A DNA stretch of 64,000 bases, from contig CM097885.1 in NCBI GenBank assembly GCA_044892525.1, positions 30,196,001-30,260,000 on the forward strand. Reading direction: 5' to 3'. The notes beneath the pieces were generated by a model. The model searched no databases and was not told the origin of the DNA. It worked only from the letters and a program-made list of their open reading frames with translations. Below, piece by piece: positions 27,808-30,800 of the stretch. A program made the translations under genes and the position numbers. The stretch comes from Schmidtea polychroa (Eukaryota). Position 1 is the stretch's first letter. Each line of letters opens with the position of its first letter.

Positions 27808-30800
27808 ATGGAAAAGAACGATAATAATCGAGTGTTGAGAGGTCTTTTGACTAATGGTAAATTATTATTATTTTATTCTATTTTTATTCTATTTTATTTA
27901 GATCCTTTCGACTGGTTCGCAGTTACCGAAGACGAATCAATATTGAACGTGGATCGGATTTTCGGTAAATTTATCATTTTAATTTTTTATTAAAATTAAT
28001 TTTATATATTTTAGAACCTATTATTATTAGCGATGATGAAGATTTAATATTTAATGGAGAAATTAATGCCGAAGATGAATCGATTTTAAATATGGAAAAT
28101 ATCATCGGTAAATTTATCATTTTAATTTTTATTAAAATTAATTTTATATATTTTAGAACCTATTATTATTAGCGATGATGAAGATTTAATATTTATTGAA
28201 GAAATTAATGCCCCAGTTAATGATGTTGGGCAAAACAAGGTTTTCAAAGAAAAAAGTAAATTTATTTTACTTTAGTATTTTATTTTTAAAAATTTTATTT
28301 TTTAGCGTTTAATGTTGATATTGATGCCGAGGAAGTTGATGAAATAAATGATTCAGATAATACCCTCACTTCTATTGAGGAGGTGGACGAAATGAATGCC
28401 CTCACTTCTATTGAGGAGGTGGACGAAATGAATGCCCTCACTTCTATTGAGGTGGACGAAATGAATACCCTCACTTCTATTGAGGTGGACGAAATGAATG
28501 CCCTCACTTCTATTGAGGTTGACGAAATGAATGCCCTCACTTCTATTGAGGTGGACGAAATGAATGCCCTCACTTCTATTGAGGAGGTGGACGAAAGGAA
28601 TGCCCTCACTTCTATTGAGGAGGTGGACGAAAGGAATGCCCTCACTTCTATTGAGGAGGACTCTGATTCCGATATGGAATCGAAATGTAAGACTTATTTA
28701 TTTTTTATATATTTTTACATATTTCTTTAAAATTTTATAAGCACTTTTTAAATATTTTCATATTAATTTCATTATTTTCTTAAAAACTTTTATAATTAAC
28801 TTATGATGAATTTATGAAGAAAATGATTTATGAAGATAATGATTTATGAAGAAAATGGTGAAAATTATGAATTTATGTTGAAAATGAATTATGAAAAAAA
28901 AAATGGCGAAAATTATGAATTTATGATGAAAATGACGAAAATTATGAATTTATGATGAAAATGATTTATGACGAAAATTATGTTGAAAATAATTATATGA
29001 CGAATATATGATGAAAATGATTTATGAAGAAAATTATGTTGAAAATAATTATATGACAAATATATGAATTTATGATGAAAATGATTTATGAAGAAAATGG
29101 CGAAAATTATGAATTTATGATGAAAATTAGGAATTTATGAAGTAAATACTACGTTTCTGAAAATAATGAAATTAATATAAAAATATTTAAAAAAGTGATT
29201 ACGAAACTATAGTTATAAAATAATTCTTGTAGTTTGCAATGTGCATCTACAGTAGTTAAAATAATAATAATAATAATAATAATAAAAATAATCATAATAA
29301 TATATAAATAATAATCAGACCCCATCTACAGTAGTTTGCAGTAAGCATGCAGCTACATAGTAGTCTACAGTGAGCATGTAGCTACTTCTCTTTTATATAA
29401 TAATAATAATAATAATAATAATAATAATAATAATAATAATAATAATAATAATAATAATAATAATAATAATAATAATAATAATAATAATAATAATAATAAT
29501 AATAATAATAATAATAATAGTAATAATAATAATAATAATAATAATGAAAATGAGGAAAATGAAGAAAATATTATGCTGAAAATGCAGTGCTCATCCAATA
29601 CATGTGCAAGTTATAACAAAGACATGACCTTAAATAGTTAAGTATTAACATTTATTATTATACAAGTTTTCATTACAAAGACTTGTATAATAATGAATGA
29701 TAATAACATCAAAATATCGACATTGCGATATTTGATTTTTTATTATTATTTATATGTTAATGAATTAATTTTTAAAAATTAATTTATATAATTTTTTTTT
29801 ATCAGGTTCTTTTTTCCCAAGATATTGCATGTCGTCAATCGGTCATGGTATTTCATGCTATAAAAACATGAAAAAATATTACATGCATAAATTTAATGGC
29901 ATCAAATTTTTTATATGCCCCATATGCAAAACTTCCCAGAGCGTTAGATATAAAGAATTTTTTAAACAACATTCAAATCATTTAAATTCTTTTAAAGTAA
30001 ATAAAAAAGACCTATTTAGGGAAATTAATAAAAATAACTGTGATATTTTAAATATTATACAAAATAAAACATCAAAAAATAAAACATCAAAAAATAAAAG
30101 ACCTGCTGAAAATATAGAAAATAATATACCTAATAAAATTATTAAAAAGGAAGTCATCGAAATCAGTGATGATGATGACTCTATAAATATTGTAAATAAT
30201 GAAATCATACCTATTATAAATAATGAAATTATACCTATTGTAAATAACGAAATTATACCTATTATAAATAATGAAATTGTACCTATTATACCTATTATAC
30301 CTATTATAAATAATGAAATTATAAATAATGAAAATATTGTAGATAATGAAATTATACCTATTATAAATAATGTAGATATTATAAATAATGAGTTGATTCA
30401 ATTTGGAGGTTCTTCCTTAGAGAATGAACCCTTAATCACAATAAATTTAAATGGCGCTATCAAGACTTTACGTTTTGATGTATCAGATGCGCAATTAATT
30501 AAAATAATTTTAACTGATAAAATCAAAACTAAATTAATAAAAGAAATTAATAAAATGGGGAGCGTCAAAATTCAATTTGCGATATTAATTCGATTTGAAA
30601 AAGATGGTGAAATCCGTGACAATTACTTTTCTAATAATGCAACGACATTTTCTGATGACTTTTTAAACGAAGGGGTTCATAAACTTAATGAAAAAATAGA
30701 ACAATTTACTTATTTAGGCAGTGGATGGCGCGTTATCAACACTCTTGAAATACATTTTATTATCACTAAATATGAACCAATTAGTCGCTTGGCAGGACAT

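Follow-up and report, generated by a model that had tools for sequence, protein, structure and literature searches.

Does the protein-primed DNA polymerase (pPolB) of a Polinton/Maverick element start within its long open frame, or is that frame the last exon of a spliced gene? The question arises in a 64,000-nucleotide stretch of Schmidtea polychroa DNA (the window), where an earlier note had read a spliced, modular N-terminal extension carrying motifs that resemble SUMO-interacting motifs (SIMs), with five phase-1 introns joining four mini-exons and an acidic repeat exon to the polymerase. We confirmed the coordinates, phase and GT..AG ends of all five introns (45, 50, 49, 50 and 1119 nt), with a cumulative exon length mod 3 of 1 at each, and found every motif that the note had listed, namely PIIISDDED in exons 3 and 4 and VIEISDDDD downstream. 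The main exon begins at 29806, the leader encoded by the upstream exons measures about 224–229 residues, and the spliced product is predicted to contain 1573 residues. GC content is 0.26–0.44 in the exons versus 0.06–0.17 in the introns.

The gene is part of a Polinton in an AT-rich animal genome of 781 Mb that includes four very large contigs. The element is bounded by 166-nt terminal inverted repeats (17168–17330 and 35826–35991, 96% alike) and a 6-bp target duplication, CATTAT, and encodes an ATPase, an integrase with a chromodomain, probable capsid proteins, an adenain-type protease, pPolB, and RING, TBP-like and Bcl-2-like proteins. It thus holds the protein-primed PolB, rve integrase with chromodomain, packaging ATPase and adenain-type protease by which Polintons/Mavericks are recognized. 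Pfam matches within the element are rve (E 2e-5, below the cut-off), Chromo, Pox_A32 and Peptidase_C5. PolB motifs lie at 31455, 32529, 32988 and 33279; pPolB homologs carry PF03175, and the window frame itself was not scored by Pfam. A 426-residue frame at 25571 occupies the expected place of the double jelly-roll major capsid protein and has no Pfam match. The family is large, with at least 45 leader matches from the 40 of 1192 candidates that were scored; a comparison based on the beginning of the main exon covered 150 of 5158 candidates.

Smaller genes of the element include a Bcl-2-like gene (weak match, 18946–19269, +), a TBP-like gene (21322–21786, −) and an IAP-type RING gene (34103–34480, −). 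GT-AG introns also lie in the integrase (23491–23625; 135 nt, in frame, with a triplet run inside) and near the protease start (26884–26920; 37 nt), the latter at the same place as a protease intron in metagenome contig L107. Elsewhere the window holds a perfect 6215-nt inverted repeat (1–6215 and 7179–13393, spacer 963 nt), which is either a recent palindrome or an assembly artefact, and an inverted pair of protein kinase frames (50542–51492 and 55531–56066) around a gypsy-like reverse transcriptase fragment. Between this Polinton and a second one sit a piggyBac-type transposase fragment (37206–37862, +) and gypsy-like integrase/RNase H fragments (41008–42379, −).

Table 1 Features of the pPolB gene, its proposed leader and its element, in window coordinates.
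Feature	Position	Strand	Description
Polinton/Maverick element	17168..35991	.	18.8 kb; terminal inverted repeats, target duplication, gene set
Likely Pol II promoter	27545..27760	+	Predicted function; 95–99% identical among subfamilies; ACAAAG.CATGAC motif at 27570, CCAAT box (reverse) at 27694, TATA-like box ~30 nt further
Exon 1	27808..27856	+	49 nt; ATG, LRxLL motif
Exon 2	27902..27964	+	63 nt; aromatic-acidic motif DW[FY]...L[ND][VLI][DE]xIF
Exon 3	28015..28107	+	93 nt; chimeric duplicate, SIM-like PIIISDDED; lacking in some copies
Exon 4	28157..28255	+	99 nt; SIM-like PIIISDDED, then second hydrophobic core D[LVI][IV]FI[EG]
Exon 5	28306..28686	+	381 nt; acidic 33/36-nt repeats; last base is first base of split Cys codon
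Intron 5	28687..29805	+	1119 nt; simple repeats, short hairpins (29331, 29360), second promoter motif copy (29616), long hairpin (about 29643–29705)
Zinc-binding domain	29806..30032	+	C-x6-C-x5-H-x3-C plus C-x2-C-x14-H-x2-H; no Pfam match
Basic KRP stretch and SIM-like VIEISDDDD	30096..30179	+	Predicted disordered linker; motif at 30153–30179
QFGG candidate protease site	30399..30410	+	Just before terminal-protein domain; putative cleavage
Terminal protein, vOTU protease, exonuclease, polymerase	30411..33842	+	From model, motifs and fold searches
vOTU catalytic residues	Cys 30861–30878, His 31209–31223	+	Kept
Leader of second Polinton family	62228..63154	-	Exons 63154–63106, 63054–62998, 62951–62799; acceptor 62228

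Comparison among copies supports the spliced, modular extension through indels, exon 2 codons, the split Cys codon and the T tract at the last acceptor. Alignment of 65 copies against 6 subfamily references gave 41 distinct exon indels, of which 29 keep the frame, and 20 intron indels, of which 1 does so (Fisher p = 1e-6), a count that leaves out two events spanning a whole intron and exon, contains many whole exon 5 repeat units among its 3n exon indels, and treats events that are not independent of descent. The remaining exon indels are mostly compensating pieces within one copy or stem from one decayed copy. Exon 2 is 63 nt long in seven subfamilies, with 11, 5 and 19 variable columns of 20 at the three codon positions (mean pS 0.73 versus pN 0.20 over 21 pairs) and stops in its other two frames in 7/7 and 6/7 subfamilies, a pattern indicating purifying selection across all seven. 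The last splice would complete the first zinc-binding Cys, for which the unspliced frame of the window has no Cys; this residue is present in all 36 outside relatives with room upstream (of 60 found), and P0017 and L107 encode it without a break, in the same frame as the rest of the domain. Across 30 loci, the T tract preceding the last acceptor is free to vary in length, with the exon side fixed and CAG in register in 28, and the last donor has the phase that fuses leader to polymerase in every subfamily. Because the exon parser sees phase-1 donors only, phase was checked separately by alignment. GT..AG ends, a pyrimidine tract, a kept frame and free length change are the features of spliceosomal introns, and splicing is further supported by the GT-AG introns that the element's integrase and protease genes contain. 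From these sequence comparisons, we conclude that the leader exons are very probably spliced onto the polymerase frame. It is extremely improbable that they are chance frames: the region is indeed AT-rich and repetitive, but the codon-position and indel tests refute such an origin, as do the conserved split Cys and the T-tract pattern.

Four sequencing runs, none on record as RNA, yielded contigs that cross the introns and promoter and are DNA-like and mostly unspliced. Over the five-exon cluster, where these contigs were compared with a 99% identical copy, no GT-AG joint across its short proposed introns is listed. One joint skips a whole intron–exon unit, as some genomic copies do, and a stray contig end at the SIM exon could not be assigned to any genomic copy and was given no weight.

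The long fifth intron could instead separate two genes, with the upstream exons forming a small gene of their own and the polymerase expressed from a promoter in intron 5, starting at Met 29829 or Met 29868. The sequence ACAAAG.C[AC]TGAC occurs twice in the window, once in the promoter and once in intron 5, where the copy at 29616 is followed by the long hairpin in 43 of 45 loci with polymerase body A, and Met 29868, which relatives retain, is the start chosen by gene callers. The motif is, however, absent before the acceptor in 14/14 body B and 22/22 P2 loci, where no CCAAT-TATA pair occurs either, and conservation of the Cys/His pattern begins ahead of both Met codons, with Met 29829 itself not retained in bodies B, D and P2. 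We therefore regard a separate upstream gene as very unlikely. Since body A carries this second promoter-like motif, a leaderless transcript is possible there, and intron 5 may contain an internal start or an operator that is not conserved among bodies. The same motif appears twice in the L107 promoter (L107:1462 and 1505) and is a possible operator, perhaps for the zinc domain. The short hairpin-forming repeats of intron 5 (29331 and 29360) vary in number in other subfamilies.

The second Polinton of the window has a leader of the same design, with exons of 49, 57 and 153 nt, phase-1 introns of 51, 46 and 570 nt, and the same T/GT donor splitting a Cys codon; its polymerase frame follows in several pieces. 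In this family, 22 of 25 listed loci run into a polymerase body of their own. The 49-nt first exon, phase-1 introns and Cys-splitting donor noted earlier for this element all stand, but the structure reflects shared ancestry rather than independent origin, and of the proposed aaa-t donor only T/GT is kept in all subfamilies, the preceding AAA being variable. Its leader exons are rich in N, S and G rather than acidic, and contain neither a SIM-like motif nor LRxLL. Behind its polymerase (window 56000–58300, −) lies a homolog of the 20064–20486 frame, not a RING gene.

Beyond the genome, L107, with 36–41% identity over the terminal-protein region, carries five short leader exons with the zinc domain placed first, mostly phase-0 introns (some phase-1) and PVIIDEDV in one leader exon. 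Contigs L108, L109 and L111 show short intron-like gaps ahead of the polymerase. These exons and gaps point to spliced, modular N-termini as a feature common to the clade, although the introns do not sit at the same positions. An additional 168-residue frame rich in acidic and Cys/His residues lies between the protease and the polymerase promoter of L107 (527–1030).

The leader behaves as an exchangeable cassette. We distinguish seven leader types, A–G, whose exon number, a comparison that the earlier note had proposed, differs both between subfamilies and within A: some A copies lack exon 3, B has one or two extra exons, and G a different additional one. Within subfamily A, exon 5 measures between 105 and 381 nt. 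Exons 3 and 4 with their introns had been described as tandem duplicates; a duplication did take place, yet exon 3 is chimeric rather than a plain duplicate, with a preceding intron and 5′ half like exon 4 and a 3′ half and donor like exon 2, and it arose by unequal crossing over. Leaders C, E, F and G are 72–86% identical to the window in exons 1–2 or unalignable, versus 95–98% identity for the upstream protease and 98–100% for the downstream zinc domain of the same copies. Conserved old leaders between young flanks have therefore been exchanged among elements, with the break in intron 5. Among loci that were chosen as best matches, partly overlap and do not form a census, leader A precedes body B in 15 and body A in 1 (this window), with a further 9 unassigned, whereas for leader B the counts are 3 with body A and 2 with body B. 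The joined sequences mark intron 5 as a zone of leader/body recombination. Because the exons are symmetric and in phase 1, the arm can be duplicated, shortened and exchanged without breaking the frame. The module had been called fast-evolving, which holds for exchange and duplication as the apparent modes of leader change, but the exon 2 codon test points to purifying and not to positive selection.

The zinc-binding domain at the start of the main exon belongs to a family of about 65 residues (P0058–P0116) with a C-C-H-C, YY, CPxC, H-x2-H pattern, often N-terminal in pPolB and present as two or three tandem units in several proteins. A profile search found 60 representatives; a first homolog search and scans of viral contigs with single proteins as queries returned none, and the domain has no Pfam, PDB-sequence or Atlas assignment. 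A single-sequence fold was poor (pLDDT 36), and the structure model was built from a 26-row alignment. Within the main exon, the model folds the zinc domain (res. 13–75), leaves the linker disordered (res. 76–203) and folds the terminal-protein and vOTU domains well, with pLDDT mostly 80–95 over residues 211–480. Fold searches gave weak Y-family polymerase matches (E ~0.01), as published for TP, and also matched adintovirus and bidnavirus PolB proteins. The terminal protein is followed by a vOTU domain with a catalytic Cys and His, of which C356 and H469 are nearly invariant.

In each of the four bodies a QxGG sequence immediately precedes the terminal protein, and QxGG recurs in two other genes of the element; it is absent from L107, L108, P0002 and most distant polymerases. 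QxGG resembles the sites of Ulp1/adenain-type proteases, and by analogy with adenovirus pTP it may mark trimming. In L109 (1–460), duplicated mini-exons just before the terminal-protein domain encode QTGG, a sequence like the SUMO C-terminus. Ubiquitin domains in pPolB leaders were considered and rejected, the 13 regions being ubiquitin-Gag retrotransposon frames and host ubiquitin-like genes; L130–L140 are multicopy retrotransposon frames with scraps of host genes, two ubiquitin units and a Gag-like region. Krupovic and colleagues argue for a cut by vOTU that separates the terminal protein from vOTU itself (10.1101/2024.03.18.585575), which would leave the leader on the primer protein at the genome ends.

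The N-terminal part might instead act away from the genome ends as a regulator of the immediate-early kind, either released by cleavage at QxGG or expressed as a short product when intron 5 is retained or polyadenylation comes early. Many relatives of the zinc domain are short or tandem and have no terminal-protein domain in the called frame, although such proteins may be single exons or contig ends. Retention of intron 5 would lead to a stop after a few codons, but the last donor preserves the leader-polymerase fusion phase in every subfamily. Adintovirus ‘Oncoid’ genes (PMC8502044) likewise place linear motifs and zinc sites upstream of PolB, and adenovirus E1A is comparable, yet the leader is spliced in frame to PolB rather than forming a separate frame, and no LxCxE motif, and so none next to a CK2 site as in Oncoid/E1A-like proteins, occurs in the leader exons or the N-terminal part of the main exon of the window. 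A free regulator is, on balance, improbable.

Which partners the arm might dock to is suggested by its short motifs. Two SIM patterns were used, both following the consensus of a hydrophobic core with an acidic or Ser flank. Over the leader and the first 200 main-exon residues, the window has 3 matches versus shuffle means of 0.37 and 0.10 for the two patterns (P 0.005 and 0.0008, or 0.05 and 0.007 when counted as two independent motifs, since two of the three are duplicates of each other). The rest of the polymerase has 0 and 1 matches, the one being a strict match in the polymerase body. SIM prediction, also proposed earlier, thus gives motifs that fit the consensus and exceed the shuffles; counted against this is a protein rich in I, D, E and N, a composition that favours such matches. 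The motif behind the zinc domain follows the basic stretch and is kept in bodies A, B, D and P2, which are only 39–75% identical in the terminal-protein region, and it is doubled in B and D. It lies in the part of the model with pLDDT <50 (main-exon res. 76–203), where the motif region and QxGG are the only alignable islands. Subfamilies A, B and G each underwent their own duplication of SIM-bearing exons. The second core of the SIM exon, D[VLI][VI]FI, is present in 55 of 78 exon rows, altered in the chimeric exon 3, and the only core retained by the extra exons of B and G.

The idea of a SIM-like module therefore stands as to consensus, conservation in four bodies and multiplication, but does not extend to most distant relatives: 4 of the 36 longer outside leaders match the SIM pattern (shuffle mean 0.49), with a pattern partly written after these leaders had been viewed, and P0002 has neither zinc domain nor SIM-like motif. 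The leader could also serve mainly as an acidic, activation-type segment or a spacer, its SIM-like strings being generic docking or kinase sites, or by-products of an I/D/E-rich composition, that do not act through SUMO. It contains 66 D/E versus 10 K/R in 224 residues, its best-kept motifs are LRxLL and DW[FY], which in an acidic setting resemble activation domains, and the element has its own TBP-like gene; SIM-like matches are moreover rare in distant relatives and missing from the leader exons of the second family. Such a role, in a gene that is nonetheless spliced, would leave unexplained a motif that is kept behind the zinc domain across such divergent bodies and has twice been doubled, and relatives include examples of both SIM types, the one with an acidic tail and VDLT. 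We judge it rather unlikely, and give SUMO binding by the leader cores, as predicted from their sequence, roughly an even chance.

Further comparisons bear on SUMO partners. The first core, PIIISDDED, closely resembles IVISDS, which has been tested as a SIM in ICP0 and is common to hDaxx and IE2 (PMC3174244). ICP0 and IE2 resemble the leader in having several copies of such a core with an acidic/Ser tail, together with a zinc domain and a basic stretch (PMC3174244). They share no sequence relationship with it, however; the Polinton chain has no RING and is fused to a replication polyprotein, and its SIMs are predicted. The leader would thus at most work like ICP0/IE2 and is not a member of that group. 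Close tandem SIMs also occur in ZNF451 (PMC12630355 and PMC4808808), where a PLRP linker that is absent from the Polinton SIM exon lies between them.

The earlier suggestions of targeting to SUMO-rich nuclear bodies and of cooperation with the RING protein found no support. A search for PML gave no match and is uninformative on PML bodies, which are a feature of vertebrates, and SUMO-tagged partners are for that reason more likely to be found in silencing or repair complexes; a search for the host SUMO gene found none. The RING protein is encoded by a separate IAP-like gene on the opposite strand, in whose place the second element has another gene, and RING and SIMs do not share one chain as in SUMO-targeted ubiquitin ligases of the ICP0/RNF4 type.

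On these grounds, we lean slightly towards a reading in which the acidic, disordered spliced leader, zinc domain, basic stretch and SIM-like motifs together form a host-docking arm on the precursor terminal protein, likely binding SUMO-tagged nuclear proteins. The gene has promoter-like boxes, GT-AG introns and one open frame, and the host would, with high probability, splice the five upstream exons onto the polymerase frame and so complete the first zinc-binding Cys. By model and motifs, the predicted arm then stands ahead of terminal protein, vOTU, exonuclease and polymerase. It may remain on the protein that primes and caps the linear genome, and the element's own protease would then trim it, or set it free, at QxGG, a step we hold to be somewhat less likely than its opposite. 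Two to five SIM-like cores are predicted to provide multivalent SUMO binding, and LRxLL and the aromatic-acidic segments to recruit co-activators, so that the genome would be transcribed and copied against host silencing; the odds for this step look about balanced. Comparison of copies shows that symmetric phase-1 exons let the arm be duplicated, shortened and swapped between elements with the frame intact. We propose, tentatively and as a rather doubtful extension, an immediate-early-like poly-SIM regulator fused to the terminal protein and built of symmetric mini-exons, with SUMO-binding valency tuned by exon duplication and old leader alleles swapped between near-identical elements, in effect a counter-silencing cassette tethered to the ends of a linear genome.

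Relative to known systems, the polymerase is of the Polinton/Maverick (adintovirus) type, with the same gene set, terminal repeats, 6-bp duplication, TP-vOTU-EXO-PALM order and catalytic Cys/His (10.1101/2024.03.18.585575 and PMC8502044). Intact vertebrate Mavericks are described as intronless (PMC8097293); here, in contrast, pPolB has five introns, an unnamed zinc domain and an exon number that varies between copies. Introns thus depart from the rule that Polinton core genes have none, a variant feature that gives no reason to exclude the element. A fold search also returned a Drosophila-associated adintovirus protein on record with an N-terminal extension labelled C2H2. In adenovirus, the viral protease removes the N-terminal part of pTP, and we know of no exchangeable motif exons in that protein. 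As proposed for the Polinton, a spliced first exon, of 9 nt in the E2B pTP, is joined to a terminal-protein precursor (PMC2397415), but there it supplies three leader codons to a separate protein, whereas here five exons would be fused to the polymerase.

Within the portions of the literature covered, no intron-split Polinton pPolB, no Polinton SIMs and nothing on Polintons and SUMO-dependent silencing were found, and word searches of nematode Polinton, adintovirus and pPolB structure papers returned no spliced pPolB; the founding 2006 paper and Repbase lie outside this scope and may mention flatworm introns. Introns made by introners have been reported in integrated DNA viruses (PMC11957031).

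Annotation treats Polinton core genes as single open frames; with 5′ exons hidden upstream, true N-termini have been overlooked, here and in metagenome relatives. Through the introns, expression comes to depend on the nucleus and splicing machinery of the host. Many young copies carry a variable cassette between near-identical flanks, as would be expected of a surface in conflict with the host, and the SIM-like peptides give an entry to how a large DNA transposon handles SUMO-dependent silencing.
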